Notes: generated by a model not told the origin, from the letters alone. Positions 5,563 through 46,001 are shown, counted from the stretch's first letter. The stretch: DNA of 64,000 bases from a candidate division WOR-3 bacterium (GCA_021158725.1 JAGGUB010000044.1:3722-67721), one strand, 5' to 3'. Translations and numbers: made by a program.

Positions 5563-6477
5563 TTAGATAGCTATCCCCAACGTCAACCTATACACGTCTT
5601 TAAGCCCTTCATAATGTGTATATGCGCAGTTGATGCTGAACCTAAACTTACCCACATGCTGTACGAACCCCACACCAGTGGACCACGTTTCGGAATCATG
5701 TCCTATCTTGTAACCAGCTCGTACAGCAAACATATCATTATACCAGTATTCGCATCCTATTGCTAATCGTTCCTTGGAGTCGGTTGGTTTGTCAACATTG
5801 ACTGCCACAGTGAGTTTGTACATATCCGTCTCGATAACCTCATCCGCAACCCCAAACGAAAACATAGTAGGTAAAGGACACATCTCATGCATAAACTTAA
5901 GGTAAGGCCCAAAGTTTGCTATCCTCATACCGAACCGCACCTTATGCCAACCCGTCCAGTAATATGTACCGATATCACAACATATCGTACCCGCTGAGTA
6001 CACATAGAGATACATACCCACATACTTCAACGTAAATCCGATCGCTGTCTTATCCGTAAGGAATGTCGCATAAGTGAGCCCCAACACAAAATCACTACAA
6101 TAGAAATACTCACCAGTACCCTCAGGTCTCAGTATGGTACGTATCGGCATCTTATCTGTGTACAACGTACCAAACGATACACCGAACGTACCCAGCCTTC
6201 TGAAACTTTTCGCCATCCCCACATATTCATAATTAATATTCGCAAACCATGGCATATGGGTAGCAAACATACTGTAGCCATTCACACGTGCCAGGCACGC
6301 TGGGTTATAATACAATGCACTTGCATCATCCGCTACTGCAATGTAGGCTTCACCCATACCAACTGCACGTGCATGACAGCCAATTTTAAGCATCTGTGCA
6401 GTAGTGCTGCCAGGTCTATCATACACCCCATATAAGAGTAGAGGCATAAGGAACGTACAGCTCAACAATTTACGCAT
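5563..6477 (-). CDS. PorV/PorQ-family (FadL-like) outer-membrane beta-barrel protein, paralog 1
   Basis: I moved the start to ATG 6477 (MRKLLSCTFLMPLLLYG) because GGGGGAG sits 5 nt upstream; the track start 6504 overlaps the upstream gene. The N-terminal hatch-like motif GARAVGMGEAYIAVADDASALYYNPACLA matches the G-x-G-x-A-x-x-A-x-x-DDA...NPA signature of FadL/PorV-type barrels. Alternating beta pattern to the C-terminus. Confidence 0.7.
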   Translation of the reverse strand: MRKLLSCTFLMPLLLYGVYDRPGSTTAQMLKIGCHARAVGMGEAYIAVADDASALYYNPACLARVNGYSMFATHMPWFANINYEYVGMAKSFRRLGTFGVSFGTLYTDKMPIRTILRPEGTGEYFYCSDFVLGLTYATFLTDKTAIGFTLKYVGMYLYVYSAGTICCDIGTYYWTGWHKVRFGMRIANFGPYLKFMHEMCPLPTMFSFGVADEVIETDMYKLTVAVNVDKPTDSKERLAIGCEYWYNDMFAVRAGYKIGHDSETWSTGVGFVQHVGKFRFSINCAYTHYEGLKDVYRLTLGIAI

Positions 6478-6487
6478 CTTGCTCCCC

Positions 6488-8356
6488 CTATTTAATGACG
6501 ACAAATTTACCTATTTGAACCTCACCCGTCTCATGATCCTCCACCGAGAATATGTAGATTTCAGTCGTTATCGCCTGGTTTGCACGTGACACGAGGTACC
6601 AGTCCTCATAACCTTTATTAGGGTCGTTATGCTCGATAACGTCCACAAGATCGCCACTTAAGGTATAGATCCTAATCGTACAGTGAGCTGGCAGATTTAT
6701 GAACTGCACCCGCCTATCAGCTTCTGACCATTGTCTACCAGCTTCACGTGGTGTCTCCCATGGCAATGGACTTGTATAATCGACATTACCGAGATATGGG
6801 TTGGGTACCACCGCTACCCGACCGAGCTTCTTAGGTGGCGAACCCGGTACGACCTTCTGCATGTTGGCAAACTTTGCACTCTCCAGCCACACACCTTCAT
6901 GTGGTATCGCATATGAGGTGACACAATACCAGTAAGGTATACCGTTCACCAACCCACTATCTACGTATTCGTATTGTAGACCGGTTTCACGACCAAACCC
7001 ATCACCTTTCTTGTCGAAATCGGCCATCAATGTCCAGGGCCCATTTATACCGCTGGTACTTTTATAAACCCTATATCCAGCAAACGGATATTCTATACCG
7101 TCCACCCTATAAGGGTCATGAAACTCCTCGGGATTGATACCAGGGTCACCGGGCTCCCACCTCCAGCATAGCCTAACCCTATGTTCGTCCGGATATACTT
7201 TCAATGGAGGTGACGGTGGAGGTGCGGGCCCATGAAAATCATTTGCATAAAATGCGTGCGCTGTTTCAACATTCTTCTCTACACCCTCTGGCCCCATACC
7301 ACAAACAACCACTATAGTGAGTTGCAACGTATCACCAGGTGCAAAGTAGTATGGGCCAAACGAAATAAGGTTACCCGAACCGCCACTCGCCTGATCTGGA
7401 CCCTGGCTCTCCATTACTATAGGTTGTGAAAGATGCTCGTACCTTATGCTATCGTTATAAGGTTCACCGCAGTCCATGTACCATCGATACGCCCGTAACC
7501 CAGGCTCCTTGGGATACTTAAGTATCGATACAGCAACCGCACCCTCGGGTGTACCGGATGGATCTGGCAAGCTAAACGCATACATCGTATACGTTGTGAT
7601 TGTATCACTTTCAGACACGAGCAAATCTTCATCAAACCACGAGTAGTCGCCATCCCACCATCCCCAAGTAGGGTATATACCTACGTTAAAATCGAACCAA
7701 AACCCAAGATAAAGCTCAGGGTATGGCTCTTCGTTCTTGTTAACCACTTGGTAGTCCACAAATACAAACTCATCGTATGGAGGACGTCCCCACGCCCAGC
7801 TACGTTGTATAACCTCAAGATGTAGCGGCTTATGTGCAACAATATCGGTCCAATAGTCATCACAGTAGTGGCAGGTAAAATCCTGCTCCGAATATGTAGC
7901 ATAATCTTCGTCAATAAACCCATCCTGATCATTATCACGGCCATCGAGTAACTCCTCATCCACCTTACCATCACCATCATCGTCCACACCCCGTACACCA
8001 TGCAGTGTATCCAGATCGTTTATGCTTGCCACCCATATAGTATCGTTTGGATCATTTGTGGGATAGAATTCGAACATATCCGATCCACCTTCTGCCCAAT
8101 CGTGGAACGCTTGTGTTACACGAGGTTCACCATCAACTTTAGCACCTATCCATAGGCCTGCACCACATATGTGTTCCTCACTACTTCCAGGTGGATACTC
8201 ACAATGTGGACGCCCTTGACCATAAACTTCAGCTTGATGCTTACCTATTGTGCCAAGGTTCGATATCTTCAACCGTATAAGGCCAACATCGTGTTTCTTC
8301 CAATCTATAGCTGGCGGTTCAACACCCAACACAAAAATTAACAATGGTATGAGCAT
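6488..8356 (-). CDS. Secreted protein with acidic Ca-binding-like D-x-D-x-D run, FN3-like region and variant T9SS-type CTD
   Basis: 622 aa, hydrophobic N-terminus MLIPLLIFVLGV. Contains VDDDGDGKVDEELLDGRDNDQDGFIDED. The C-terminus VVPNPYLGN...VQFINLPAHCTIRIYTLSGDLVDVIEH...EIYIFSVED...GKFVVIK resembles the CTDs of the other three CTD proteins, with a ~28-aa insert after PNPY. Confidence 0.6.
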   Translation of the reverse strand: MLIPLLIFVLGVEPPAIDWKKHDVGLIRLKISNLGTIGKHQAEVYGQGRPHCEYPPGSSEEHICGAGLWIGAKVDGEPRVTQAFHDWAEGGSDMFEFYPTNDPNDTIWVASINDLDTLHGVRGVDDDGDGKVDEELLDGRDNDQDGFIDEDYATYSEQDFTCHYCDDYWTDIVAHKPLHLEVIQRSWAWGRPPYDEFVFVDYQVVNKNEEPYPELYLGFWFDFNVGIYPTWGWWDGDYSWFDEDLLVSESDTITTYTMYAFSLPDPSGTPEGAVAVSILKYPKEPGLRAYRWYMDCGEPYNDSIRYEHLSQPIVMESQGPDQASGGSGNLISFGPYYFAPGDTLQLTIVVVCGMGPEGVEKNVETAHAFYANDFHGPAPPPSPPLKVYPDEHRVRLCWRWEPGDPGINPEEFHDPYRVDGIEYPFAGYRVYKSTSGINGPWTLMADFDKKGDGFGRETGLQYEYVDSGLVNGIPYWYCVTSYAIPHEGVWLESAKFANMQKVVPGSPPKKLGRVAVVPNPYLGNVDYTSPLPWETPREAGRQWSEADRRVQFINLPAHCTIRIYTLSGDLVDVIEHNDPNKGYEDWYLVSRANQAITTEIYIFSVEDHETGEVQIGKFVVIK

Positions 8357-8365
8357 GATACCCCC

Positions 8366-11014
8366 TTACCATTTTATTCCGATACCTAACTCAATCTGTC
8401 TACCAGGGTCGAACACATATGGGTTTCTCATAGCGTATATCTGTTTCCAACTATAGATTTGACGATATGCTTCATTGGCATCCCCGTATTTGTAAGGTTC
8501 ACCCGTCCATGTGTTGAACCCACACCATAAGTGGGTTACGTTCTGATTGTCCAGTAGGTTCGATACCTCCGTAAAGAGTACTATATCAAGGTTACCGATC
8601 TTAAATCCTTTCTCCATTTTAAGGTCGACCGTACTCGTGTACGGTGCATGTGCAGTATTTTCGTATATCTGTGGATCTTTACCACCAGGTGTATAAGGTA
8701 GGCCCGACCCAAACCTCCACAGTATGCTTATCGACCAATCATCTGGCAACTTCTTACCGAACAACGTCGGGTGTTCACCTTTTGGAGCTTCAAAGTTGGC
8801 TATCATGACGATTGAGTGACGTTGATCCCAATCCAGTGGCCGCTCACGTATCGGTAGGGTCATACCACTCCATACCCTATAGCATTCCATGAATGCACTT
8901 GATGCATAACCGTTAGCCCACTGTAAGGTATACGCTATACTACCTGAGGTGAACCTCGAGTATCGTTTACGTAGATGTATCTCAAGTCCCTTTGCACGTC
9001 CATAACCTTTATTAATCCATACCCATACCGGAGGTTCGCCCGTCTTCACGAGCCCAACATAATCGGATATATCCTTCATGAACAGCTTGAAATCGACAGC
9101 CATATCTCTCGTTATCTTGTGTGAGATACCAACCTCATAAGCTACAGTGACTTCAGGCTTTAGGTTAGGGTTACCTACCCATGTGCCAGTCCATGGATCA
9201 CGATAGAAGTACTGTAACTCAGGTACCTGACTGAAATGCCCATAAGCAAAGTATATAACGGTTTTGTCACTTATAGGGTGTGACATACCCAGCCGTGGAC
9301 TTATCTGTATCCTGTGACGTTTAACTTCAAGCGGTAGCTGGGTGATAGCCTGCCACTGCCTCAGATAATCGGGTTGGGTTACGGTTTCACCCGGTGTGAA
9401 ATAGTCGACCCTCAACCCTACATTCACTATAAGGCCTTCAAATTCCATCTTATCCTGTACGTAGGCAGCACCCTTGATGGGATAGCCCTCAAAACACCAT
9501 CGATATAGCCCATACTCTGGATACGGTCCCGGTACGGTGTCACGCCCAGGGTAACGGAATGAACCAGGGTACTGGATATCGATATAGTTCACATCGTGGT
9601 AGTTAATCTCTATCCCGGATTTTACCAAATGTCGTGGATGTACCTGTGACGTGATGTCATACTTCAACGTATATACGTAAGAGATATCATCCCTATATCG
9701 TGAATCCGCACCTAAGTCACAGAATCCGTCGCCATCGGTATCCCAACCCCATGGGGTTGAAGTGTAGATTGTATCACCTTCTGGGGTTATCTCCACATGC
9801 CAAAATTCCGGCGGTGTATGTAACCACGAATAGTAACGTGTCTTCAAGTAACCCAGATGCAATGTGTAGAATGTCTTAGGTGATACCGTATGGATGAACG
9901 AAAAAGTCGCATGCTCACTAAACCTATGACTTATGGGTAATGAATCCGGCATATCTTTCCAATACCAATCGAACCTACTCCAACGTTCACCCGTCCTCCT
10001 ATATCCGAATGCAAATTTATATGCCTTGGTAGGTTGATATGTAAGTTTGAGGTTTAAACCCGCCTTATTCTCCTGACGTTCGGTGATCTCGAATATACCG
10101 GGTAATATTTCGATCTTCTCTCTTGTACGATGGTTATTGTAATACGTATCGGTAAGCTTGAAATTACTTGAGATAAAGAACCTGAGGTTACCCGGTACAA
10201 TACGATCAAGTATTGGTATGGGACCACCAAATGATACAGCTCCATAGTCTGTGTTGAACGAATATCGCTTAGGTGCAAGGTTATCGCTTTTGTACATCAG
10301 CTCACCCGATAGCTTGGGCCCACCTTCACGTGTCACTATGTTAACCACTGCGGATTGTGCTTGCCCATATTCGGCGTTGAACCCACCCGTAAGCATTTCA
10401 ATCTCCTGTATGGAGATTACATCAAGATCGAACGCTGCCGTACCACCATATATGGGATGCCTTATAGGGATACCATCTACCATATACAGGATTTCGCCAC
10501 TCCTACCACCTCTTATGTGGATTTCCCTACCTCTACCTACAGCACCGGGTTGCAGGGCGACAATATCTTCGAACGACTCCACCTTCGGTGTGGTAGCGAT
10601 CTCCTTCCGTGATACATATCGTACGGAGGCAGTAACATCCGGCTGTATAAGCGGTCGTTCAGCCACCACTGTTATGCCAGGTACTTCAATAGCTGTCGGT
10701 TCGAGTGCGAAATCCACCCTCGTGGTGAGGTCCGTCCTCACAATTATACCTTTAACATCCACTGGCCGATAACCTATACGTTCGGCACGTACAGTGTACT
10801 CACCTGGTGGTACTTTCAGTATGAAATATTCACCATGCTTATCCGTAGCCGCTCCATAAGTGGTACCCGGTATGTACACGTTGACATTTTCCAGCGGCTT
10901 GCCTGTCTCCTTGTCTATCACCCTACCCGCAATTTTACCATAGACACCAGCGAAGAGGAAGGTGGGAATTATTAAGGAGGCGAAAACTATAAACTTGGGA
11001 GTTAATCTATGCAT
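8366..11014 (-). CDS. TonB-dependent receptor with N-terminal carboxypeptidase-regulatory-like domain
   Basis: 882 aa. The N-terminus GKIAGRVIDKETGKPLENVNVYIPGTTYGAATDKHGEYFILKVPPGEYTVRAERIGY is CarboxypepD_reg-like. It is followed by a plug-like region (ALQPGAV...IHIRGGRSGEILYMVDGIPI) and a long barrel ending ...IELGIGIKW. GGGGG SD. Confidence 0.85.
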   Translation of the reverse strand: MHRLTPKFIVFASLIIPTFLFAGVYGKIAGRVIDKETGKPLENVNVYIPGTTYGAATDKHGEYFILKVPPGEYTVRAERIGYRPVDVKGIIVRTDLTTRVDFALEPTAIEVPGITVVAERPLIQPDVTASVRYVSRKEIATTPKVESFEDIVALQPGAVGRGREIHIRGGRSGEILYMVDGIPIRHPIYGGTAAFDLDVISIQEIEMLTGGFNAEYGQAQSAVVNIVTREGGPKLSGELMYKSDNLAPKRYSFNTDYGAVSFGGPIPILDRIVPGNLRFFISSNFKLTDTYYNNHRTREKIEILPGIFEITERQENKAGLNLKLTYQPTKAYKFAFGYRRTGERWSRFDWYWKDMPDSLPISHRFSEHATFSFIHTVSPKTFYTLHLGYLKTRYYSWLHTPPEFWHVEITPEGDTIYTSTPWGWDTDGDGFCDLGADSRYRDDISYVYTLKYDITSQVHPRHLVKSGIEINYHDVNYIDIQYPGSFRYPGRDTVPGPYPEYGLYRWCFEGYPIKGAAYVQDKMEFEGLIVNVGLRVDYFTPGETVTQPDYLRQWQAITQLPLEVKRHRIQISPRLGMSHPISDKTVIYFAYGHFSQVPELQYFYRDPWTGTWVGNPNLKPEVTVAYEVGISHKITRDMAVDFKLFMKDISDYVGLVKTGEPPVWVWINKGYGRAKGLEIHLRKRYSRFTSGSIAYTLQWANGYASSAFMECYRVWSGMTLPIRERPLDWDQRHSIVMIANFEAPKGEHPTLFGKKLPDDWSISILWRFGSGLPYTPGGKDPQIYENTAHAPYTSTVDLKMEKGFKIGNLDIVLFTEVSNLLDNQNVTHLWCGFNTWTGEPYKYGDANEAYRQIYSWKQIYAMRNPYVFDPGRQIELGIGIKW

Positions 11015-11040
11015 GGCACCCCCTTTTATTAATGATCGGC

Positions 11041-11115
11041 TGGGGGCAGGGGGTGGATTCGAACCACCGACCTCCGGGTTATGAGCCCGGCGAGCTTCCG
11101 CTGCTCCACCCTGCC
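11041..11115 (-). tRNA. tRNA-Met (CAU), 75 nt, CCA encoded
   Basis: Folded by hand: acceptor GGCAGGG/CCCTGCC, D arm GAGC-AGCGGAA-GCTC, anticodon arm CCGGG-CTCATAA-CCCGG, T arm GGTGG-TTCGAAT-CCACC, 3' C-CCA. The G1:C72 pair argues for elongator rather than initiator. An Ile2 (lysidine) identity cannot be excluded. Confidence 0.85.
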
Positions 11116-11218
11116 GGATTAGATTATGATGTTAAATTAAAATTACCATTTAAATATAGATGTCAAGTCAACGCAACTGTATAGATTGACCTGCTCCCAA
11201 CGCTTTTATTTTTAAGAG

Positions 11219-24810: not shown

Positions 24811-25694
24811 CCGTGCCCCCTATAGTTGTTGAGACTAATCTACCGTATCCATTATATAAGCGTGGTAAGGTGCGTGATGTTTATAGGTTTGGTGAGGATA
24901 AGTTGCTTATCGTAGCTACCGACCGTATTTCGGCATTTGACCATGTATTACCTACACCCATACCTCATAAGGGTGAAATTTTGACCCAATTGACGATATT
25001 CTGGTTCAACTTCTTAGAAGATGTGATGCCCAACCACCACGTGAAGATGGCGCTACACTCCCTTCCACCAGAGTATCGGTTACGGACAATGCTTGTTAAA
25101 AAAGCTGTACCCATACCTGTGGAGTTCATAGTACGTGGCTACCTCACAGGTGCTGCATGGAACGAATATGTACAAACCGGTACAGTATGGGGGATGAAGT
25201 TACCATCAGGTTTACGTGAAGCCGATAAGCTCGAACGTCCAATCTTCACACCCACACTTAAGGCAACTGTTGGGCATGATGAGCCAATCTCCTTTGCAAC
25301 ACTGGCGGAGATGATAGGTTGGGAAAATGCCGAATATTTGCGTGAGAAGAGTATCGAAATTTATGAGAAAGCACATCAATACGCATACGAGCGCGGTATC
25401 ATAATAGCGGATATGAAGTTAGAATTTGGCTGGATAGATGGTGAACTCGTAATCATAGATGAAGTGTTGACACCAGATTCGTCACGTTTCTGGGCACGCG
25501 ATGAATACGAGCCTGGCAAACCACAGGTAAGTTTTGACAAACAATTTGTACGTGATTATCTCACAACAGTATGGGATAAAAACTCTGCACCACCTGAATT
25601 ACCCGAAGAGATAGTTAAGCAGACCTATCAAAAATATGTTGAAGCTTACAATAGACTTACGGGTAGGGATTTTAGTAAGATCGTGTCACAATAA
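24807..25694 (+). CDS. purC: Phosphoribosylaminoimidazole-succinocarboxamide synthase
   Basis: 295 aa. LYKRGKVRDVY...LLIVATDRISAFD...ADMKLEFG...DEVLTPDSSRFW. The GTG start overlaps the upstream stop (GTGA). Confidence 0.92.
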   Translation: MTVPPIVVETNLPYPLYKRGKVRDVYRFGEDKLLIVATDRISAFDHVLPTPIPHKGEILTQLTIFWFNFLEDVMPNHHVKMALHSLPPEYRLRTMLVKKAVPIPVEFIVRGYLTGAAWNEYVQTGTVWGMKLPSGLREADKLERPIFTPTLKATVGHDEPISFATLAEMIGWENAEYLREKSIEIYEKAHQYAYERGIIIADMKLEFGWIDGELVIIDEVLTPDSSRFWARDEYEPGKPQVSFDKQFVRDYLTTVWDKNSAPPELPEEIVKQTYQKYVEAYNRLTGRDFSKIVSQ

Positions 25695-26703
25695 ATTCTG
25701 TCAGCTCACGGAAGACAGTCTTTGATTCCTCCATGATCGGCATCTTGTCGATAACCGATAACGCCTGCGAAGTAAGCTCAGCAAGCCGTCTCTCTGTGTA
25801 CTTGCGTGCACCTACATCTTCGAGTAATTGCTTCACTTTGGCCACATCAGCAGCTGTAAGGTTGGGGTTACCCCAATGGTGTTGAAACCATTCCCTATCT
25901 CCAACAGATAAATGGTTAATTGCGTAGATATAAAGTAGTGTGCGTTTACCTTCTTTGATATCAGAATCGACAGGTTTACCTGTCTTGTTGGGGTTACCCC
26001 ATATACCCAGCAGGTCGTCCTTCACCTGATATGCACGTCCAAGGTAAATCGCATATTCCTTATAGCAGGATTTGGTGTGCTCATCCGCACCTGCAAGTAT
26101 TGCACCTATCATTATTGGGGCAAACGTTGTATAGCTTACAGTTTTGAGATCCACCATGTGAAAGTAGTCGGATTCATCCAGTTGCCCCTTTTGCATCAAA
26201 GTAATATCGTATATCTGGCCGAAATAACACTGTGATACTGCAGATAGCCAACATTCCAACGCATGCAGTTTGGTAGACTCCGAGAAACTCGTATCCAGTA
26301 ACGGCTTGATACTCTGTATTAAAAGTAGATCACCACCTACAATTGCTGAACTTACACCAACATGCGTATCACCCAGTAGGGATTCCATCACTTTGTGTAG
26401 GGTGGGGCCACCACGTCGTACGGTGTCACGATCGATGATATCGTCATGGATGAGGAGCGACCCCTCCGTGAATTCAACCATCAACGATGCAGTCACTATA
26501 TCATCGTGCTCCTGGCCGGTGACACCTCGATAGGCTTCTATCAACAGAAACGGTCGTAACCGTTTGCCGCCACGTAGTACGAAATCTTTGAGCGACTGCT
26601 TAAGTGTAGGATCTTCACCTATCCAGTGCTTATCAAGGTATTCACGTAGCTTATTTTCTATGAGATGACGACGCTTGACGAGCAGTGATTGAAATGTCAT
26701 CAA
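25672..26703 (-). CDS. Polyprenyl diphosphate synthase (GGPP/long-chain type)
   Basis: 343 aa. First Asp-rich motif LIHDDIIDRDTVRRG and second motif YQVKDDLLG. Confidence 0.85.
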   Translation of the reverse strand: MMTFQSLLVKRRHLIENKLREYLDKHWIGEDPTLKQSLKDFVLRGGKRLRPFLLIEAYRGVTGQEHDDIVTASLMVEFTEGSLLIHDDIIDRDTVRRGGPTLHKVMESLLGDTHVGVSSAIVGGDLLLIQSIKPLLDTSFSESTKLHALECWLSAVSQCYFGQIYDITLMQKGQLDESDYFHMVDLKTVSYTTFAPIMIGAILAGADEHTKSCYKEYAIYLGRAYQVKDDLLGIWGNPNKTGKPVDSDIKEGKRTLLYIYAINHLSVGDREWFQHHWGNPNLTAADVAKVKQLLEDVGARKYTERRLAELTSQALSVIDKMPIMEESKTVFRELTEFIVTRSY

Positions 26704-27658: not shown

Positions 27659-29407
27659 CTACTGGGTGAGATCAAATATCTGTATCCTATCATTCTCTGT
27701 ATCTACTACATACAGTAAGTTGCCACATGTTGACAAAGCTTGTGGGTTGTTAAAACATCCAACCGCTGTACCTGAAGTACCCCAACGTGTAATAAATGTT
27801 ATGTATTTAAATTTCTGTACACGTGCATTGTCACTCTCGATAGTATAAACATAACCGCTATCGTCGACAGCTACATCACGTAAACCGATGAACTGACCAT
27901 CTTCCACACCTTCGGTTTCACCAAACTTACTTATGTAAGTACCGGAGGTTGTAAATATCTGCACTCTGTTGTTGTAGAAATCTGCCACATAAACGGTATC
28001 GTTGTGAATATCGATACCTGTGGGTAGATAGAATTGGCCATCACCCGCCCCGAAACCGCCCCAGCTGGTGACGAATTCACCATTGTGGGTGAATTTCTGA
28101 ATACGGTGGTTTTCGCGATCCACCACAAAAACGAAAGTATCGTACACTGCTATATCGTAAGGGTAACGAAACTGCCCGTTAGCTGCACCGTAACCACCCC
28201 ACTCAGCTACTATTGTACCGGTGGGTGATAGCTTCTTGACGGTTTGGGTGCCTGCATCTGTCACATAGATGTAACCATTAGTATCTACATCCACAGATAT
28301 GGGGGTATCGAAATATTGCCACTTATCGATAATGTTACCAGAAAGGTCGGTTATCACGAGTGATTGGGTACCGCTTTCTACTATATAAGCTCGGTCATCT
28401 GTTACACATATCTCGATGGGGGTATCGAAGTTGGGCCATTCATCCACAAAATTGGTTTTTATAGAAATAGCAGTTGGATCAGACCATTCCGACACACGTG
28501 ACCATTGGTCTCTCGCCTGTGCACGTACGTAGTGTAGGCCAGGAGTATCGAAATAATACCATACGGTGTAGACACTGGTGTCAGGTGGCCCCCATGCAGT
28601 GGTGTCATTATCGAACACAAACCTATATGAAAGCGCATCATCGTAAGGGTCAGGATCACTGGTTTGGGTGCTGAATTTCATTGGTGTATAAACATAGCTC
28701 ATAGGTTTACAAGAAGGGGGAGGTGGTGCAGTCGGTGGCCTATCAACTATGCGTATGAAGGTAGAAGCAAACGTATCAGCCACACTACCATGTATGTTCT
28801 TCGCGTAAGCCCTAAATTCGAAGCTTGTATCAGCAAGCGTAAAAGACAGTTGAATCGAATCTATGCCACCCGATGGTACAGGAGGACGCCAGTCTATTGT
28901 ATCTGTAATGGTCATACCTAATAGTACTAAAAATTGGAATTGTATGCTATCGTTGTTGGGGTCCACCGCACGTGCATAGAACCAGTAATCTTCACCTATA
29001 TAGCCAGTGTCAGGACCCCACACTTCAAGCGATCCAGGTGGTGGATAGTAAGACTTAACGGTAAACACGAAAGGAGCCGACCACTCTGAAGTAGCACCAT
29101 GTTCGTCTTTTGCCTGTGCACGTATCTCATATGTACCGGACTCCGTAAATGTATGGGTATCGATCCATACGCTATCGGACGGTATGAGATGGCTCCATGT
29201 GGAGATTGTACCATCACCCCAATCAAACCGTATAGATATACGGTCTTCGTCTGGATCGTGGGTTGACGTCATAAATGCATAGGTGGTTAGAGCAGTACCT
29301 TCTTCGGATTTACACCATGGGGTTACGGGAACCTCTGGCGGGTGGTTGGCATGTTTACAGGTTAGCAAAATTAAAATGAAGCACACACTCCAAGCTACAC
29401 GCTTCAT
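27659..29407 (-). CDS. Lipoprotein with three PKD-like repeats and a six-bladed NHL-repeat beta-propeller
   Basis: 582 aa, lipobox ILLTC. Three ~100-aa units end in ...SEWS (units 1 and 3) or its divergent counterpart. NHL blades include FRYPYDIAV, NHRIQKF, GQFYLPTGIDI, NNRVQIF, ARVQKF, DRIQIF. Confidence 0.8.
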   Translation of the reverse strand: MKRVAWSVCFILILLTCKHANHPPEVPVTPWCKSEEGTALTTYAFMTSTHDPDEDRISIRFDWGDGTISTWSHLIPSDSVWIDTHTFTESGTYEIRAQAKDEHGATSEWSAPFVFTVKSYYPPPGSLEVWGPDTGYIGEDYWFYARAVDPNNDSIQFQFLVLLGMTITDTIDWRPPVPSGGIDSIQLSFTLADTSFEFRAYAKNIHGSVADTFASTFIRIVDRPPTAPPPPSCKPMSYVYTPMKFSTQTSDPDPYDDALSYRFVFDNDTTAWGPPDTSVYTVWYYFDTPGLHYVRAQARDQWSRVSEWSDPTAISIKTNFVDEWPNFDTPIEICVTDDRAYIVESGTQSLVITDLSGNIIDKWQYFDTPISVDVDTNGYIYVTDAGTQTVKKLSPTGTIVAEWGGYGAANGQFRYPYDIAVYDTFVFVVDRENHRIQKFTHNGEFVTSWGGFGAGDGQFYLPTGIDIHNDTVYVADFYNNRVQIFTTSGTYISKFGETEGVEDGQFIGLRDVAVDDSGYVYTIESDNARVQKFKYITFITRWGTSGTAVGCFNNPQALSTCGNLLYVVDTENDRIQIFDLTQ

Positions 29408-38494: not shown

Positions 38495-38586
38495 TATACC
38501 TCCTTATAATCCTAAAATATTCGAAATCCATCAAAATCAATACTAACTACACCAATCTTACGAATCACATCCATTACTATAATAGG

Positions 38587-38616: not shown

Positions 38617-38628
38617 TTCATAGACCAA

Positions 38629-39150
38629 ATGTGGCCACTCCGTAGCAGAGAAGGGTTTACATTAGTGGAGTTGCTTATGGTTGTCCTCGCGTTAGGTATA
38701 TTTGCAGCTGTGCTTATGCCACGTTACTTTGCACTACACAAGCAAGCGTTACGGGCTTCTTTTGATGCCACTGTAAGTAACATCCGTAGCGGTGTAGAAG
38801 CATACCACTATGCATGCCTTGCGGGTAAATTCGATAAGTACGATCCAAACAACGTAATATATTGCCCAACAAACCCTTTGATCTCATATGATCCTTATTA
38901 TGTACACAACGTAGAGAGTGGTAACCCTTTCTATCAGCCGAACCCATGGCCGTCAGTGCTCGATTACAGTCAAGCAGGTGCTGAAGCAACCTACCAGTAT
39001 CCGTTCTTTTGGGTTATACTCGAAAAGCCCGTAACAGATGGTTGGACCAAACGTAGTGATATGCTTGCCGATACAATCTGGTACTACGGACCTCGTAAGA
39101 TTGACAGTTTTGCCTACATACGTGTAACCGGTAAAATTTTCGTACCATGA
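38629..39150 (+). CDS. Prepilin-type N-terminal cleavage/methylation domain protein (pseudopilin/pilin-like)
   Basis: MWPLRSREG|FTLVELLMVVLALGIFAAVLMP is the classic G-F-T-L-x-E class III signal. 173 aa from ATG 38629. Confidence 0.75.
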   Translation: MWPLRSREGFTLVELLMVVLALGIFAAVLMPRYFALHKQALRASFDATVSNIRSGVEAYHYACLAGKFDKYDPNNVIYCPTNPLISYDPYYVHNVESGNPFYQPNPWPSVLDYSQAGAEATYQYPFFWVILEKPVTDGWTKRSDMLADTIWYYGPRKIDSFAYIRVTGKIFVP

Positions 39151-39165
39151 CGAGTTAGTAGCACG

Positions 39166-40419
39166 ATGGAATACGACATACGTGACATTGGGTTAAGCGA
39201 GCGTGGCATAAAACGTATTATGTGGGCAGCCACCCGTATGCCAGTATTGAATACTATTCGCCAGGAGTTAGCCAAATCACATCCACTTAGAGGGGTAAAG
39301 ATAGCTGCCTGTCTACATGTGACAACGGAAACCGCTAACCTCATCCTAACCTTGAAAGAGGGTGGCGCCCAGATACGACTTACCGCATCCAACCCCTTAT
39401 CTACTCAGGACGATGTGGCGGCTGCACTTGTTGCCGAGTACGGTATACCGGTGTTCGCGATTAAAGGTGAAGATCGTGAAACCTATTACAAGCACATAAA
39501 CCAGGCACTTGACATTAAGCCACACATAACCATGGACGATGGTGCCGACCTCATATCCACACTACATAGAGAGCGACAAGATCTTATCTCTAACGTCGTA
39601 GGAGGTACTGAGGAGACGACCACCGGTGTGGTGAGATTGAAACAGATGGCCACCAAAGGTGTACTCGGTTATCCTGTCATTGCGGTTAACGACTCATATA
39701 CTAAATATTTGTTCGACAACCGTTACGGTACGGGGCAGAGCACGATAGATGCCATCATGCGTGCAACAAACATACTATTGGCAGGTAAAACGTTTGTGGT
39801 TGCTGGTTATGGATGGTGTGGTAGAGGTATCGCCTGGCGTGCAAGAGGTATGGGTAGCCATGTGATAGTTACTGAAACCAACCCCATACGTGCACTTGAA
39901 GCTGTGATGGATGGCTTTACGGTTATGCCTATGCGTGATGCAATAAAGGTAGCCGATATCGTTGTAACCGCTACGGGTGATATCAATGTCGTAGATGTTG
40001 AGCATCTCAAATCTGCCAAGGATGGTGTGATACTTGCGAATGCGGGACATTTTGATGTCGAAATCAACATACAGAAGTTGCATGAACTGGCAGATAAAGT
40101 GGAAAACATCAAACCCATGGTTGATTGCTACCATTTGGGTGATAAAAGGATATACCTGTTGGCTGAAGGTAGGTTGGTGAATCTTTCAGCTGCCGAGGGT
40201 CATCCCGCTGAGGTGATGGATATGAGTTTTGCCAACCAAGCGCGTGCAGTCGAATATCTTCTGAAACATGGCGATAAGTTAGAGAAGAAGGTATACAAGC
40301 TGCCGGACGAGATCGACCGCGATATAGCGATACGTAAACTTAAAGTGATGGGGGTTGAAATCGACAAGCTAACCCCCGAACAGCAACAGTACCTCAGTTC
40401 ATGGGAATGGGGTACATGA
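39166..40419 (+). CDS. ahcY: Adenosylhomocysteinase
   Basis: 417 aa. [25 protein letters not shown] fold [28 protein letters not shown]. Confidence 0.95.
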
Positions 40420-41244
40420 TCATTCAGCTCCTGGATAGGCCTCACGAAATAGGGTAAGTGTTGTACCATCATACCCCATGATATTGTGGTCTTCGTCAAA
40501 ATATATCACTAATTTGCCAACCTCTGACAATTCCCCATATGTACGTACTATAATTGTATGTGATAAACTATCTTCGAGCGGCTCATGTAAGCCACGCCCT
40601 TCGTAGCCACCTACAAGTATATCGATACCTCTTACCTGTTCGACCAGCTTCACATCGTTATCAAACCCAAGTGATGACAGTACAATGAGCACATCGACAC
40701 TATCACGTATGTGTGCCACTACACGGCTTACACTCTCTATGGGGTTGTACACTTTAATCTTGGTTGCATACTCCCAAGCTAATGCGGGTGCTAAGTACTG
40801 GGTTACCACACCTATCACACCTATAGTGATACCATCTTTTTTCAAAATCACATATGGTTTGTTGTAACCTTCGATATTCGCTGATATAAATGTAGGGCTA
40901 TCCGGCAAATATGGTACCCATGGTAGGTCATATACTCCAATATTTACAACATCGTAGTTAAGCTCACCGAACATCTTCAACATCATATGTGGTGGTTCAC
41001 CATACCTACCGGGTGCACTGAAGTTACCTGCATCTAAAAGCAACAACGGGTAGCCCTCCCTGTATGCCTTCTGACGTTCTACCGATAGCAGGTATTTCAG
41101 TGACGGTAAGCCACCAAGTTCAGGTGGAAAGTTTGGATTTATCCATGTAGCAGGACGTGGATATGTAACCTCCGCTATATCATTGGTATATAGGATGACA
41201 AGCTTCTCAGTAACAAAAATCAACCCTACTATCACTATTGTCAT
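40420..41244 (-). CDS. Membrane-anchored 5'-nucleotidase/metallophosphatase-fold protein with all metal-ligand motifs degenerate (pseudoenzyme)
   Basis: 274 aa, N-terminal TM MTIVIVGLIFV. Scaffold motifs are retained but the ligands are lost: ILYTNDIAEV (for D-x-H), LLLDAGNF (for G-D), VNIGVYD (for G-N-H-E), VLSSLG (for S-H-x-G), LVGGYEG (for G-G-H-x-H). Confidence 0.65.
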   Translation of the reverse strand: MTIVIVGLIFVTEKLVILYTNDIAEVTYPRPATWINPNFPPELGGLPSLKYLLSVERQKAYREGYPLLLLDAGNFSAPGRYGEPPHMMLKMFGELNYDVVNIGVYDLPWVPYLPDSPTFISANIEGYNKPYVILKKDGITIGVIGVVTQYLAPALAWEYATKIKVYNPIESVSRVVAHIRDSVDVLIVLSSLGFDNDVKLVEQVRGIDILVGGYEGRGLHEPLEDSLSHTIIVRTYGELSEVGKLVIYFDEDHNIMGYDGTTLTLFREAYPGAE

Positions 41245-41798
41245 CTCACTGTAGGAAGCGTTTTGGTCGACACTCTCAGAAGCTGGTCAAAGTACTGTTC
41301 GAACATTGTTGCAACCTCACGTGATACGATCATCACCGTAGCTTCATTATTCCTCTGCAGTGCGTAATACGTCCAGTTATGTGAACCCACAAACACTATC
41401 TTACCATCGATTATGACAACCTTACAATGTGTGGTGACATCGGGCGGATCGAAATACACTTCGGTTATACCGAGTTCATGAAGATGTTTGGCCACCTGCA
41501 CATTTTTACGTGTAACACTGGGGTTCCAATCTGACTGATCGAGTATGAGCTTCACCTCCACACCCTGTCTATTTATATACGCAAGCGCATCATACAGCGA
41601 ATCATTCATCCCACGCGGATATTGTGGGTAATAACCTGCACTAAACATTATCACATGTACAACACTATCTGCATTGTATACCTCCTCGATCAACCGTCTC
41701 ACGTAGTCGCGATTGAATGTAACTTCAACCTCATCTGCAGGTAAGCCAACCGCCACACTCGCTACTATAACAATAAATGCTACAAATATGCGTTTCAT
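41241..41798 (-). CDS. Secreted single-HKD phospholipase-D-superfamily protein (Nuc-like endonuclease candidate)
   Basis: 185 aa, signal MKRIFVAFIVIVASVAVG. HCKVVIIDGKIVFVGSHN is an exact H-x-K-x4-D-x6-G-S-x-N motif. The size and single-motif layout match Nuc-type nucleases rather than two-domain PLDs. Confidence 0.7.
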   Translation of the reverse strand: MKRIFVAFIVIVASVAVGLPADEVEVTFNRDYVRRLIEEVYNADSVVHVIMFSAGYYPQYPRGMNDSLYDALAYINRQGVEVKLILDQSDWNPSVTRKNVQVAKHLHELGITEVYFDPPDVTTHCKVVIIDGKIVFVGSHNWTYYALQRNNEATVMIVSREVATMFEQYFDQLLRVSTKTLPTVR

Positions 41799-42889
41799 GG
41801 TAACTCCTTCTTGATCGTAAAGATAACACTGAACATACTTTCGTCGATTTTGTCAAACCCCTCCACATCCACAAGGTATGCACTGTATTTGCGACACCAG
41901 AAGCTTATCCCAACGTCGATCTCACAAAATGCGCCCCTATAGCCGATACCTGCAGTGTAGATCCCTTTTGATAGACGTTCATCCTTAGCCGCTGATAGCC
42001 ATGCGAAGCCGGCTCGTAACAGAAATGAAGGCATAAGCTCGTGCTCCACACCCATGTGGTATTCCCATTCACGATGTTTGCCTTGATGGGTTAACACCTC
42101 GGCTACAAAATATGCAGGTAAAATATTTGCTGGCCGATATCCGATACCTACTCCATACGTGAATTGAGGATAATCGAACAGTGTATCTTTAAGTGTGGAT
42201 ATCTTCCATATACCGCCGATGGTCCACCTAAAAGAAGGTTTGATACATATACCAAACGTAAAGTTTATACCCTGAAGTTTACCACTTGTCGATGTATCCC
42301 ACGGTTCACTACCTTCATATGAGGGACGCCACATCTTTGCATGTTGCCAATCCCCTTTTAAATAACTACCACCTATCCCCACGTATAAGGTGGGCCATAC
42401 TCGTACACCCAACATTGCTGAATACGATATAACCATACCGGTTGAGGATTCGATCTGCCACCCCCTTATGAGATAGTAGTCATCGTACATCGGGAGCTTA
42501 AACTCATAGTCGAACACATATTTAGGGGATACTTTAAAGTCGAACGACACACCGTGTTTATAGAGATTTATACCTAATGGCATAGGAACGGTATGTAACT
42601 CGTCACGTATCGCACGTGTAGCTTCACCTACATAGTCTTCGAACTCATTGTATACCTTAACCTTACGTTCCTCGGTAATCTGATGAAGTTGTAGGTTGAT
42701 GACAACCGCAGAGATCGAATCATAACACGCGGGGTTGTCTGCATCCGTCACCACTATAGATATGTAGCCTAACCCAACATTCTTGCCATCGAACATAGAT
42801 AATGGATAGCCACCAGTTGCTATCTCATGTAATGTATATCCATACAGAGGGATTACTGCAAAACTGAAGATGTACACAAATTTACTCAT
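41795..42889 (-). CDS. Hypothetical outer-membrane beta-barrel-like protein
   Basis: I moved the start to ATG 42889 (MSKFVYIFSFAVIPLYG) with GGAGG 5 nt upstream, fused to the preceding TAG. Alternating aromatic/Gly beta-strand pattern (YVGIGGSYLKG, FTFGICIKP, YGVGIGYRP, YTAGIGYRG). Confidence 0.55.
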   Translation of the reverse strand: MSKFVYIFSFAVIPLYGYTLHEIATGGYPLSMFDGKNVGLGYISIVVTDADNPACYDSISAVVINLQLHQITEERKVKVYNEFEDYVGEATRAIRDELHTVPMPLGINLYKHGVSFDFKVSPKYVFDYEFKLPMYDDYYLIRGWQIESSTGMVISYSAMLGVRVWPTLYVGIGGSYLKGDWQHAKMWRPSYEGSEPWDTSTSGKLQGINFTFGICIKPSFRWTIGGIWKISTLKDTLFDYPQFTYGVGIGYRPANILPAYFVAEVLTHQGKHREWEYHMGVEHELMPSFLLRAGFAWLSAAKDERLSKGIYTAGIGYRGAFCEIDVGISFWCRKYSAYLVDVEGFDKIDESMFSVIFTIKKELP

Positions 42890-42897
42890 ATAGCCTC

Positions 42898-45195
42898 CTA
42901 CCACCATATTATCAAAAGTAAGTTACCACCAAACTCACGCCTGGTATCGATAAACTCGTAAATTGGTATACCATCCTCTGAATGTGCACCCAACATCCCA
43001 GTATGCGGGAACTCGCTTAATTTATACCTAAATTTTAACCTAAATAATAAGTTATGTGACAGCCTATCTGATAGCACTAAGTAATATTTCCAGCCCCTAC
43101 CCTCAAGAAAGTCTATACCCGTGTCTTCGAATATCCACTGCGATAACCCCTGTGTCTGCCATATCGCATATCCACCCAGTATCGACATATGTGGTGATAA
43201 ATTATACCGATAGGTGAGCGCGAGAAACCCTCCCGTTATTGTGTTGGCTGTCTCATATCTTGGTAACGAAGGAAACGATACCCTCGCATAACGTAATTCA
43301 GCACGTAAGTTGTTGTAGTTGCTTAACCTATATTCGATTGTGAGCGATGTCTCCCATAGATGCGATATTGTAGTGGTAGCCAGCCGTTTGTGTGATTTAG
43401 CCTGCAGCTTTTGCCTCAGATATATACGTAACGGGAAAGCTGGCCGATACTGTAATGTCACCTGTGTACGCCAGTTAGGTAACCCATACGCAAGGTCCTT
43501 CCATACATCTATGTAAAAACGTGATATTATCAACCTATGTGATGGTTGGTATCTGAACTCAAGATATATACCCTCCTCTGCCCTCGGTACAGGATATTCG
43601 GAAATATAGACATAAAGTGGATCTATCAACCGATACGAACGTTGCCATATGCCTTCACCAAACCGCCTACGTTCGGCAAACCCACGTGAGTATGGGTTAT
43701 CATAATCCACATCGTAGTGCCGTAAAACCAAGATCCCATATAGTGTTTCATACTGTAGGTGTAGCTTCATAATGTATGCATGACCGGCATGCTGTTGCTT
43801 TGCGTAGTCAAATTCTAAGCTCATATTGTTCACCACCGTAGAGAGATGTGTACCTACGAAGCTACGATGCTGGCCACGACTTGATAATAGGTAGTTAGGG
43901 TCATCGATCACCTCCTTATCCCAGGGTATATCCAGGTATTTGGGATTCGGGTTGAATGGCCTCGAGTAAAGTAAATCGAGTAGACTAACCCCTACGTATG
44001 TACCTACAGGTAGATTGTATAGACCGCCCATATCTACGGTGAGGTTAACTCCGATCATTCGTTCCTTCACGTTATGACGGAATGCGGGTAGCACCGGGTA
44101 GATATGTATCAGGTGGTTCACCGAACTGTCAGGGTTAAGTATTGCATTCCTTGGTGCATACGACCACAGTATGGTAGGATGTATGCGGTTGAATGTGAGT
44201 TCAGCTGCCACCCCTTGTAGATAGAAATGTTCGTAATACGTGAGGTCACCGAATAACCCCTCCGGACGCGTGTGTAATCTTGCACGTATCTCGTCACTGT
44301 TATCAAGTAATATACCTTGCCCCCATGTTACCCTGTACGTACCGATGTACATTTTACGTAATGGGCCTATCGATCGTAGCTCGATATAACCTTTGTTGAA
44401 TTTCCTAATCCCTAGATATACATGTGGGGTTATACCCATCCGTAACCGCCAGTCCCATCCCCGATATGTACCCTCACGTAGGTAATCTTCCTTCTCACGA
44501 TATAGCCGTGATATGAGGTGCACGATCTCATCTTTGGTCCATCCAGCTGCTATTAGGTCTTCCTCCCTGTATTTAAGATAGGTAGGCCTACCATAAAGGT
44601 CACCCAATATATCGCCCCTTATGTAATAGATAGTACGCCAGCTGATCTTTAGGTAACCTTCTGTCCCATGTAGGGGTTTGTCTTCAAAGGTTACAAAGTT
44701 TCTGAGATTCCTATATCCCCAGTACGATAACCCCGGTATATCGCGGAGTGCACGTTGATACGATATCTTACCATATAGCTGACGATATCTTACAATGCTG
44801 GCAGCATCCACCAAGCTGACACCATCAAACATTGCAATATCCTTAACAGCTGCACGATTTATGTTGAGCGGATGTCCAAGATACCAGAGCCACTCTTCTA
44901 CAGCACCTGCACGTGGCCCTTCCTCACGGGTGAGCCGCTCCTGCAGGTATTCATAATAATCGCTGGTTTCACGTCTATAAGGTGGTGGGGTCAACTTCAC
45001 CAGGTAACGTATCTTGTTTACTGACTCAATAGGTAATATCTTCGTAAGCTCGTAAAAGCTACGAAAGTACCCATGTTTAAGCCTGTATAGGTATATTGCT
45101 TGGATTTCGGGCTCACTCAGAGGTAGTTGCTTAAGCTTATATAAACTATCGGTGTTTAGATCGATAACAATCAGTATGGATAGCAGGATTACCAT
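42898..45195 (-). CDS. Two ComEA-like helix-hairpin-helix domains fused to a ~550-aa beta-barrel-like C-terminal region
   Basis: HhH unit 1 is DLNTDSLYKLKQLPLSEPEIQAIYLYRLKHGYFRSFYELTKILPIESVNKI. Unit 2 is LNINRAAVKDIAMFDGVSLVDAASIVRYRQLYGKISYQRALRDIPGLS. The remainder is amphipathic beta-strand-rich and ends LLLIIWW (aromatic terminus). The start is ATG 45195 (overlaps the upstream stop) or TTG 45213. Confidence 0.6.
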   Translation of the reverse strand: MVILLSILIVIDLNTDSLYKLKQLPLSEPEIQAIYLYRLKHGYFRSFYELTKILPIESVNKIRYLVKLTPPPYRRETSDYYEYLQERLTREEGPRAGAVEEWLWYLGHPLNINRAAVKDIAMFDGVSLVDAASIVRYRQLYGKISYQRALRDIPGLSYWGYRNLRNFVTFEDKPLHGTEGYLKISWRTIYYIRGDILGDLYGRPTYLKYREEDLIAAGWTKDEIVHLISRLYREKEDYLREGTYRGWDWRLRMGITPHVYLGIRKFNKGYIELRSIGPLRKMYIGTYRVTWGQGILLDNSDEIRARLHTRPEGLFGDLTYYEHFYLQGVAAELTFNRIHPTILWSYAPRNAILNPDSSVNHLIHIYPVLPAFRHNVKERMIGVNLTVDMGGLYNLPVGTYVGVSLLDLLYSRPFNPNPKYLDIPWDKEVIDDPNYLLSSRGQHRSFVGTHLSTVVNNMSLEFDYAKQQHAGHAYIMKLHLQYETLYGILVLRHYDVDYDNPYSRGFAERRRFGEGIWQRSYRLIDPLYVYISEYPVPRAEEGIYLEFRYQPSHRLIISRFYIDVWKDLAYGLPNWRTQVTLQYRPAFPLRIYLRQKLQAKSHKRLATTTISHLWETSLTIEYRLSNYNNLRAELRYARVSFPSLPRYETANTITGGFLALTYRYNLSPHMSILGGYAIWQTQGLSQWIFEDTGIDFLEGRGWKYYLVLSDRLSHNLLFRLKFRYKLSEFPHTGMLGAHSEDGIPIYEFIDTRREFGGNLLLIIWW

Positions 45196-46001
45196 CGTAT
45201 GCCGACCGTCCAAGTTATCGGCAGATAAGCATGGTATTTAAATGCGCAATCTAATGTAAGTTGCTTTAATTTGAAGCTCACCCCCCACGTTAGGACAACG
45301 GGTGGTGTCTCCATACCCGTACGAACCGTTAGGTTAGGATGTATCTGGAATTCACCACCTATCCGCATACGGTTGACACCTACATGGGTACGCTCCAACT
45401 CCATCATGGTGACAGCACCTACAAACGGTACGTATGACATACCCACTGTTAAGCTACGTGGTATATAATGACGTGAAAGCTTACCTATACTGGGGTTGTT
45501 CAACGGATGTATTACTGCACCCAAACACCACCTATCATATACGTAACCGATTAACCCCATATCTACACCAATGACATGTGAGCTACCAAACCTCTGCATA
45601 GATAGCGAATAGTAAGAAGTTGATACCCCAAAGTAAAGGTCACCCGCTATCGGTAATCCAATACCAGCAACCACTATACGTTCTTCGTACAGTGATACAT
45701 TATCTCCTACGTTTAACAAATGTACACCTACAGCGACCGTATATTGGTGGACCGATCGTGCCAATATGAAGTTGGCTCTATTCACGATACTGAATAGGTG
45801 TTCATAATTCGCTTCTATACGGGTACCACTTATGAGTGACAGCCCTGCTGGGTTATAAAATAAGGTTGATGGCGCATCCCCTATTGCAACAAATGCATCA
45901 CCACAACCAGCTACACGTGCACTTAAGGAGTACTGGTCAAACATCCCAAATAGCATGCCAGGCAGTATTATCCCTATTGAGATCAAGCTTTGGTGCTTCA
46001 T
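45189..46001 (-). CDS. PorV/PorQ-family (FadL-like) outer-membrane beta-barrel protein, paralog 3
   Basis: 270 aa. SARVAGCGDAFVAIGDAPSTLFYNPAGLS motif. ATGA overlap with the upstream CTD-protein gene. Confidence 0.65.
   Translation of the reverse strand: MKHQSLISIGIILPGMLFGMFDQYSLSARVAGCGDAFVAIGDAPSTLFYNPAGLSLISGTRIEANYEHLFSIVNRANFILARSVHQYTVAVGVHLLNVGDNVSLYEERIVVAGIGLPIAGDLYFGVSTSYYSLSMQRFGSSHVIGVDMGLIGYVYDRWCLGAVIHPLNNPSIGKLSRHYIPRSLTVGMSYVPFVGAVTMMELERTHVGVNRMRIGGEFQIHPNLTVRTGMETPPVVLTWGVSFKLKQLTLDCAFKYHAYLPITWTVGIRW

Follow-up and report, generated by a model that had tools for sequence, protein, structure and literature searches.

PorV-family barrels encoded beside surface-protein genes as probable private outer-membrane anchors in a candidate division WOR-3 bacterium

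In the prevailing view of the Bacteroidota type IX secretion system (T9SS), one PorV serves all cargo with type-A C-terminal domains (CTDs), type-B cargo has private PorP/SprF barrels, and PorQ-PorZ is a special case internal to the machinery. Here we have analyzed a 64,000-nucleotide (nt) stretch of DNA, referred to below as the window, which is contig C36 of a candidate division WOR-3 metagenome-assembled genome (MAG; 1.25 Mb, 88% complete). In the window three genes for short PorV-like outer-membrane barrels each follow directly upon the gene for a surface protein. Judged by sequence and by analogy with PorQ-PorZ, the barrels are probably private outer-membrane receptors or anchors for surface proteins encoded in the same cassettes.

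In the attachment complex of P. gingivalis, the PorQ-PorZ and PorV-PorU pairs each consist of a PorV-family barrel that holds one T9SS-secreted protein by its uncleaved CTD, the tails of PorU and PorZ being bound by PorV and PorQ, respectively (PMC10202324, PMC10947112). A review from 2023 offered the speculation that tails are shielded from cleavage by cognate PorV-like barrels, both in the PorZ/PorQ pair and in type-B/PorP pairs (PMC10202324). In a study from 2025, type-B tails were shown to have cognate PorP/SprF shuttles, and PorV was said to be used by all type-A tails (PMC12618676). PorP/SprF barrels with type-B CTDs, such as SprF with SprB in F. johnsoniae (PMC12618676, PMC9143113), resemble the arrangement in the window in that linked cognate barrel-cargo pairs exist alongside a general PorV. 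PorV (LptO) itself, the general shuttle that docks to SprA (PDB 8gl6, 6h3i), has the same fold and shares the NF033709 family. Likeness is also found to SusC/SusD (RagA/RagB), where the gene for a TonB-dependent receptor with a CarboxypepD_reg domain stands directly ahead of the gene for a surface partner, and to BamG-BamH, where a FadL-type 14-strand barrel docks a surface lipoprotein and the genes may share an operon, as described for BamG2-BamH2 (PMC12578637). The principle of a dedicated barrel thus has precedent in PorQ-PorZ, PorV-PorU and PorP/SprF with type-B tails. Novel features here are the scale, the use of PorV-family instead of PorP-family barrels, two new subtypes of tail and the association with uptake operons. 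We found no description in the literature of a receptor-partner-barrel cassette, or of PorV paralogs in WOR-3.

The six open reading frames (ORFs) of the three pairs, proposed in a first-pass annotation of the window, were all found at the coordinates given there:

6488..8356, minus strand: partner 1, 622 amino acids (aa)
5563..6477, minus strand: barrel 1, 304 aa, start ATG at 6477
27659..29407, minus strand: partner 2, 582 aa
26700..27650, minus strand: barrel 2, 316 aa
45998..47926, minus strand: partner 3, 642 aa
45189..46001, minus strand: barrel 3, 270 aa

The first-pass annotation had also described the barrels as short (270-316 aa), which they are, and all three junctions as tight. The latter is true as well, with one correction in detail. 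In pair 1, TAG is followed by a gap of 10 nt, GGGGAGCAAG, and ATG; the junction of pair 2, TAGGAGGTACTATG, has a gap of 8 nt with a Shine-Dalgarno-like AGGAGG that lies 4 bases ahead of the ATG, not five as annotated; and pair 3 has an ATGA overlap. The proposed N-terminal NPAGL motif common to the barrels is real, albeit less uniform than described, since it ends with NPACL in barrel 1 and lacks the first G in barrel 2 (AMGYAY...FWNPAGL).

The C-termini of partners 1 and 3 had been regarded as type-A-looking CTDs, an assignment that was not supported. With TIGR04183 (cut-off 23 bits at the C-terminus) as the reference for canonical type A, the C-termini of 45 proteins of the genome passed (49 genome matches in all), and partners 1 and 3 were neither among the 49 matches nor found by direct scans. 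When scored with a type-A profile derived from these 45 tails of the genome, canonical tails reach 27-94 bits, compared with 21.7 bits for partner 3 and 19-22 bits for the paralogs of partner 1 (i.e. at most 22 bits), and partner 1 itself gives no match. Two subtype profiles, on the other hand, score partner tails at 112-142 bits. The tail of partner 1 reaches 119 bits on the first of these, the cassette-tail profile, and the tail of partner 3 reaches 112 bits on the second-subtype profile vs 18.5 on type A. According to phylum-wide alignments the cassette tail consists of VVPNPY, a variable insert, and F.NLP..CTIRI[YF]..G.L...IEH...W[DN]LL...SG[IL]YIY...GKF.[IV][IV][KR]; in partner 1 it reads VVPNPY..F.NLP..CTIRIY..IEH..GKFVVIK. 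The second subtype, represented by partner 3, reads YPNPF.P..GE...I[YF]D..GR.[VI]K...W.G.D...GIY......K.[IV]V[IV]GT[PQ][LF], with partner 3 ending in ..KPIVVGTPLK.

Among the curated models, the closest match to the cassette tails is PorZ (matching 10 of the 11, with E down to 1.7e-10), followed by the PorU model (6.9e-7) and only then by generic type A (4.9e-6); the type-B model TIGR04131 matched two of the 11 at E 0.011. Judged from these profiles, partners 1 and 3 carry two specialized tail subtypes, and the cassette subtype is closest to the uncleaved tails of PorZ and PorU. The pairs thereby differ from PorP/SprF with type-B cargo on both sides, as the barrels belong to another family and the tails are of the type-A/PorZ kind. 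Partner 2 has no C-terminal sorting tail.

The genome encodes 11 PorV-family paralogs, including the three of the window, and five of the 11 genes lie directly behind a gene for a CTD-tailed protein, against a background in which such tailed genes make up about 4.6% of all genes (binomial P = 8e-5). A barrel gene is next in line for four of the six specialized tails where this is determinable, vs one of 45 canonical tails (Fisher P = 3e-4, a value made approximate by contig ends). The sole canonical tail with a private barrel, at C125:1-1914, scores 67 bits on the genome's own type-A profile and has a 284-aa barrel 21 nt downstream; that barrel scores 92 bits with NF033709 and 78 with PorV2, and its clade pairs with weakly CTD-like proteins in relatives.

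Between two and 15 PorV-family matches were present in each of the sampled WOR-3 genomes (151/151). Five near-complete genomes from other WOR-3 families were used for a census of gene neighborhoods, comprising 37 PorV-family barrels with at least 45 bits on the barrel profile. Directly behind a clear CTD-type gene stood 15 of the 37, or 20 if weak tails are counted. The recurrent modules were receptor-partner-barrel (the cassette order of pair 1), PorU-barrel, and a second-subtype partner followed by a barrel and a protein of about 800 aa. At one locus (G148:C1, around 2,057,000) the gene that lies upstream of a barrel of the cassette clade (1286 aa) has an N-masked C-terminus; its tail was left unscored and tallied as 'other'.

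In a maximum likelihood tree of 100 barrels, all of the barrels paired with cassette partners (25/25) and all of those paired with NHL proteins (13/13) fall in one clade (SH-aLRT 99), with the NHL-paired group, including the clade of barrel 2, nested inside the cassette clade, to which barrel 1 also belongs. Barrels paired with the second tail subtype are found in another clade (16 of 17, SH-aLRT 99), and the PorU-adjacent barrels of relatives in a third (SH-aLRT 100). The third clade has one member per genome in the six genomes examined, and it includes C55:10357 of the present genome and none of the three window barrels. Not one of 500 label shuffles clustered as well as the observed tree (0/500). 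Thus, the pairings annotated in the window are conserved in relatives, and the barrel clades track the type of partner, which offers a simple rule for annotation by which the clade of a barrel sequence would predict its type of partner.

These results bear on the proposal that the barrels are redundant general PorV shuttles for many type-A cargos, and that the position of their genes has no functional meaning. The genome does encode 45 or more type-A cargo proteins, and no barrel reaches the cut-off for the PorV equivalog, which leaves the identity of the general shuttle uncertain. However, the adjacency is far above chance and conserved across the phylum, the barrel clades follow the tail type of the partner, and the PorU-linked clade with its single member per genome is a better source for the general PorV. 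We therefore regard redundant shuttles as very unlikely. Almost all of the ordinary type-A proteins of the genome lack a private barrel.

The assignment of the barrels to the PorV/PorQ group was supported by scans with hidden Markov models. Barrels 1 and 2 match NF033709 (PorV/PorQ family, curated cut-off 90) over their full length with 202.2 and 156.3 bits, respectively, whereas barrel 3 reaches 38.7 bits, below the cut-off, over its N-terminal 77 residues only. Barrel 1 also passes Pfam PorV (28.4 bits, cut-off 27). Unlike PorV and PorQ proper, the window barrels reach neither equivalog cut-off: NF033710 (PorV, cut-off 250) gives 84.2 bits for barrel 1 and 41.3 for barrel 2 and is unreported for barrel 3, and NF033711 (PorQ, cut-off 220) gives 83.4, 85.7 and 23.4 bits for barrels 1, 2 and 3. 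The PorV2 equivalog cut-off (325) is likewise reached by none of the three. They are also shorter than PorV (LptO), which has about 370-390 aa, and C55:10357 is the better PorV candidate. No match to PorP/SprF (PF11751) was obtained for any of the three barrels at E <= 0.1; in the whole genome PF11751 also found nothing, but there the search control was silent too, hence this is no evidence of absence. The classification that had been suggested as a check on the barrels thus points to the PorV/PorQ group, and neither to generic FadL transporters nor to PorP/SprF, with barrels 1 and 2 passing NF033709 and barrel 3 as an outlier. As a side observation, barrel 1 passes the cut-off of Pfam UPF0164 (22.2 vs 21.4 bits), a family of FadL-like outer-membrane proteins of Treponema, which hints that this spirochaete family is related to the PorV/PorQ barrels.

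Barrel 3 was chosen for modeling as the weakest-classified barrel. The AlphaFold2 (AF2) model, built from an alignment of 26 orthologs, has a pLDDT of 87.8 and a pTM of 0.82, and consists of 14 strands with a short helical N-terminal hatch. Foldseek matched it to TodX, TbuX and FadL, and the top TM-score was obtained with 8gl6_F (TMq 0.76). We take this chain, from the translocon complex of F. johnsoniae, to be PorV. When the members of the barrel-3 family were scanned one by one with NCBIfam, PorV_fam was matched in 26 of 26 (best E 6.9e-26), PorV2 in 22 and PorQ in 12, and matches to PorP/SprF were weak and confined to 4-5 of the 26 (five with NCBIfam). The corresponding Pfam matches were scattered over TraF_2, Toluene_X, UPF0164, PorP_SprF and PorV. 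The barrel-3 profile aligned over its full length to one Ignavibacteriales protein annotated as PorP/SprF (hhalign 99.5%). This match raised the possibility that barrel 3 is a PorP/SprF protein, which was rejected since the per-member scans favor PorV/PorQ. A word-based protein search with barrel 3 alone found two near-identical proteins only, and the profile search reached further. From the model and the family scans, we place barrel 3 as an outlier of the PorV/PorQ group, on a branch with a slight leaning to PorP/SprF.

The fold of barrel 3 also bears on whether the barrels work as FadL-type channels for the import of small hydrophobic or amphipathic products, in uptake operons shared with a TonB receptor and with binding or hydrolytic proteins that are secreted. 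Such channels would be in line with the FadL/TodX fold of the barrel 3 model, with its 14 strands and N-terminal hatch, the conserved NPA motif, weak but recurrent Toluene_X matches, and operons that hold a TonB receptor and nuclease- and nucleotidase-like genes. Toluene_X/FadL (PF03349, cut-off 29.7) scored 26.3, 12.2 and 18.7 bits for barrels 1-3, in each case with the N-terminal motif only; it is thus below cut-off for all three, whereas the PorV/PorQ model is passed by two. Furthermore, the barrels have 270-316 aa compared with about 420 aa in FadL/TodX, so that there are no long extracellular loops, and import would leave the association with tail subtypes unexplained. A function as channels is therefore improbable, and a generic FadL transporter was rejected as the principal explanation because the family cut-offs are unmet and the synteny is specific.

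Pair 1 is part of an operon that opens with a TonB-dependent receptor and continues beyond the barrel:

8366..11014, minus strand: TonB-dependent receptor, 882 aa, first gene of cassette 1, with CarboxypepD_reg, Plug and barrel
4927..5553, minus strand: lipoprotein with a weak DUF4382 match, 208 aa, in the operon of cassette 1
3412..4920, minus strand: lipoprotein of unknown family, 502 aa, in the operon of cassette 1
993..3350, minus strand: BNR-like protein with a canonical type-A tail (TIGR04183 34 bits), 785 aa, last in the operon

In Pfam the receptor matches TonB_dep_Rec_b-barrel (81 bits), CarboxypepD_reg (68) and Plug (45), and receptors of this kind also stand first in the paralogous cassettes of C114, C74 and C117. 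Partner 1 matches no Pfam or NCBIfam family. Its AF2 model (pLDDT 85.9) is all-beta and has three parts, namely a large beta-sandwich like the N-domain of GH116 glucosidase, without the catalytic domain, an Fn3 domain, and a seven-strand C-terminal sandwich in which a low-confidence insert of about 30 residues follows strand 1. Six paralogs of partner 1 are encoded in the genome. The order receptor, partner, barrel is found at three loci, i.e. in the window, on C114 and on C74; on C79 a small lipoprotein stands between partner and barrel, C117 shows receptor and then partner up to the contig end, and the paralog on C70 is truncated where its contig ends. The surface proteins concerned are specific to their cassettes and several per genome, unlike PorZ and PorU, which are parts of the secretion machinery. 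The cassette differs from SusC/SusD in that the partner lacks both a SusD fold and a lipid anchor, and is instead all-beta with a secretion tail and a barrel of its own; a role as a lid would be by analogy with SusD.

The order of receptor, cassette-tail protein and barrel was present in all of the near-complete WOR-3 genomes examined (5/5). Homologs of partner 1, all annotated as 'hypothetical' and free of Pfam domains, occur in MAGs of WOR-3, Calditrichia, Krumholzibacteria, Eiseniibacteriota and Bacteroidota. A Caldithrix sp. MAG (WJIP01000365.1) has a receptor, three tandem partner paralogs (595, 601 and 599 aa) and one barrel of 309 aa, and, provided that the anchor model is correct, several partners may share a single barrel at this locus. 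In a Bacteroidota MAG the partner and then a barrel annotated as PorV are found at the start of a contig, where the position of a receptor is not visible. The Krumholzibacteria locus of a partner homolog has no barrel.

Pair 2 had been interpreted as cargo and shuttle, which does not agree with the nature of partner 2, a tail-less lipoprotein inserted into a TonB-receptor cassette. It has PKD (41 bits) and NHL-propeller (89 bits) domains and the lipobox LLTC. Among the nearest relatives of barrel 2, at 41-49% identity, an NHL protein was encoded directly upstream in 13 loci and a cassette-tail protein in five. All seven relatives with longer flanks (7/7) show the order TonB-dependent receptor, cassette-tail protein (1075-1128 aa), NHL lipoprotein (584-604 aa, lipobox GC[KR]KN), barrel, and a protein of about 650 aa. 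In the present genome this tailed protein has as its ortholog (39-50% identity over the full length) a 1053-aa protein on C117, which stands behind a TonB receptor (C117:1-6297) and ends 72 nt short of the contig end. An assembly break as the cause of the separation was considered and rejected, as the 72-nt end does not overlap with the DNA upstream of the NHL gene; cassette 2 thus appears to be split in this genome. It also varies within the genus, as an ortholog of barrel 2 is present at 96% identity in one genome (G105) and absent from another of the same genus (G001). The tailed partner of barrel 2 is likely, from its sequence, the 1053-aa protein on C117, and for the NHL lipoprotein the role of an accessory surface component is more fitting than that of cargo for barrel 2.

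A gene resembling polyprenyl-diphosphate synthases (25672..26703, minus strand, 343 aa, TTG start) shares a few bases with the stop of barrel 2, and the putative enzyme, as read from the sequence, may be co-transcribed with the NHL-barrel pair. In the relatives the protein of about 650 aa follows the ortholog of barrel 2 in its place.

Pair 3 belongs to an operon of six genes (40420..47926, minus strand), in which the recognizable domains are all related to nucleic acids. The four genes behind the pair are:

42898..45213, minus strand: helix-hairpin-helix (HhH)-barrel protein, 771 aa, combining ComEA-type HhH domains with an outer-membrane barrel (HHH_3 43 bits)
41795..42907, minus strand: barrel-like protein, 370 aa, with a faint PorV_fam match of 19.5 bits
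41241..41798, minus strand: PLD/Nuc-type nuclease-like protein, 185 aa (PLDc_2 81 bits)
40420..41244, minus strand: UshA-like 5'-nucleotidase-type protein, 274 aa (NF041198 61 bits, below cut-off)

Partner 3 itself (DUF5689 53 bits, ExeM_NucH 62 bits) has OB-fold modules of the ExeM/NucH type without the nuclease domain. Orthologs of barrel 3 are spread over many WOR-3 families, and at 17 of the 30 loci the gene upstream encodes a partner 3 ortholog with the ..VVGTP tail. An ortholog of the 771-aa HhH-barrel protein was directly downstream in every locus where downstream DNA was available, namely 27 of 29 loci of relatives and three loci of the census. The first-pass annotation had paired barrel 3 with the upstream tailed protein, but the invariant neighbor is this downstream protein. 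By its gene content the operon is probably an apparatus for capture and degradation of extracellular DNA, with barrel 3 as a fixed component.

The neighbors of barrels 2 and 3 could also be explained if the barrels were platforms for surface lipoproteins or neighboring barrels, similar to BamG and independent of T9SS, each barrel packing against the TonB receptor or the HhH-barrel protein and holding the adjoining lipoproteins, with the tailed proteins as ordinary cargo that shares the operon. Precedent exists in BamG-BamH and the BamG2-BamH2 operon (PMC12578637). Pair 2 consists of a lipoprotein and a barrel, lipoproteins adjoin the barrels in cassette 1 and on C79, and barrel 3 is invariably beside another barrel protein. 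On the other hand, the BamG model gives a negligible score (15.8 bits vs a cut-off of 250), by which identity of the barrels with BamG was rejected, and the genes are not near bamA. A lipoprotein between partner and barrel is optional across the cassettes, and such platforms would not explain why the PorZ-like tails of the partners are specific to clades and occur together with those of the barrels. We consider such platforms unlikely.

The interpretation of the barrels as private receptors or anchors implies that a partner would cross the outer membrane via the SprA translocon, steered by its specialized C-terminal beta-sandwich tail, and that the cognate barrel, instead of the general PorV, would take the tail. 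The tail would then be retained uncleaved and bound, so that the partner is tethered beside the remaining machinery of the cassette. By analogy with PorQ-PorZ (PMC10202324, PMC10947112) an anchor would fit better than a shuttle, albeit the partners here are tied to TonB receptors or to a DNA-binding barrel, unlike PorZ and PorU, and the retention of their tails is something we infer. In cassette 1 the tethered beta-sandwich and Fn3 protein would be the substrate-capture subunit of the adjoining TonB-dependent receptor. Barrel 2 would be a similar barrel from a split cassette, with the NHL lipoprotein in an accessory role, and in cassette 3 barrel 3 and the 771-aa HhH-barrel protein would form a unit, to which the OB-fold tailed partner 3 is added where present.

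Several observations weigh against private anchors. That barrel and partner bind to each other physically is what we infer from synteny and homology, and the FadL-type NPA hatch motif kept in the barrels would allow a role in transport. Such a role, or that of a BamG-like platform (PMC12578637), may be a rival explanation or an additional function. The tail of the 622-aa partner 1 of the window is the only one of the 11 cassette tails that matches no curated tail model, and a cassette-tail protein of 1045 aa on C21 has no adjoining barrel. As partner 2 is tail-less, recognition of a tail by a barrel cannot account for the adjacency in pair 2. The steadiest neighbor of barrel 3 is a barrel protein rather than a tailed one, and a 13-member subclade of barrel 3 has no tailed gene upstream. 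With regard to the secretion route, SprA was not matched in this 88%-complete assembly, but the search control was also silent, and the result is no evidence of absence; a 1764-aa SprA ORF is present in the 99%-complete genome G001 of the same genus, and SprA was also found in six other WOR-3 genomes. GldM/PorM (TIGR03517, PF12081) and GldK/PorK (TIGR03525) were matched neither here nor in three to five other WOR-3 genomes (searches in the present genome, G001, G084, G024, G148 and G006), with models that may be too specific for Bacteroidota to detect the WOR-3 proteins. This makes the route of secretion less certain than it is in Bacteroidota, and the T9SS of WOR-3 may lack the known motor and ring, or have very divergent versions of them.

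The data fit a situation where, judged by the gene complement, a general PorV for the many type-A proteins was retained in WOR-3 and the principle of PorQ-PorZ was multiplied. They suggest that throughout WOR-3, an uncultured phylum, and in some neighbors this principle has become tied to nutrient-uptake operons, with a tail subtype for each paralog. Should this be confirmed, it would account for the many unannotated 'PorV/PorQ family protein' genes found in genomes of the Fibrobacteres-Chlorobi-Bacteroidetes (FCB) group, provide new tail classes for cargo prediction, and show how bacteria without SusD fit TonB receptors with surface capture subunits. More tentatively, FCB bacteria beyond Bacteroidota might possess modular outer-membrane machines, in which a T9SS subunit with an uncleaved PorZ-like tail is tethered by its own PorV-family barrel and bolted either to a TonB receptor, as a SusCD without SusD, or to a DNA-binding barrel, as a device to capture extracellular DNA; we regard this as possible but doubtful. 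If true, the number of PorV-family paralogs in a WOR-3 genome (2-15) would be a readout of the number of machines made.

The window also encodes the sortase of the secretion system:

51128..54973, minus strand: PorU sortase, 1281 aa (NF033707 462.6 bits, cut-off 420; Peptidase_C25 244 bits)

No barrel adjoins this gene, and the order PorU then barrel was found in WOR-3 relatives. The best NF033710 score of the genome (114 bits, full length) belongs to C55:10357-11409, the member of the PorU-linked clade, which is a candidate by sequence for the general PorV. C55:7613-8470 was reported as the genome's best match for PorQ (NF033711 80 bits) and is the corresponding candidate. The barrels of the window hence come on top of a candidate general PorV and a candidate PorQ. 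The idea of cargo-dedicated barrels in the first-pass annotation is thereby retained with respect to the conserved pairing, while its extension to one barrel per type-A cargo is not, given these candidates kept elsewhere in the genome. The two C55 genes lie 2 kb apart amid unrelated housekeeping genes, and neither of them adjoins PorU.

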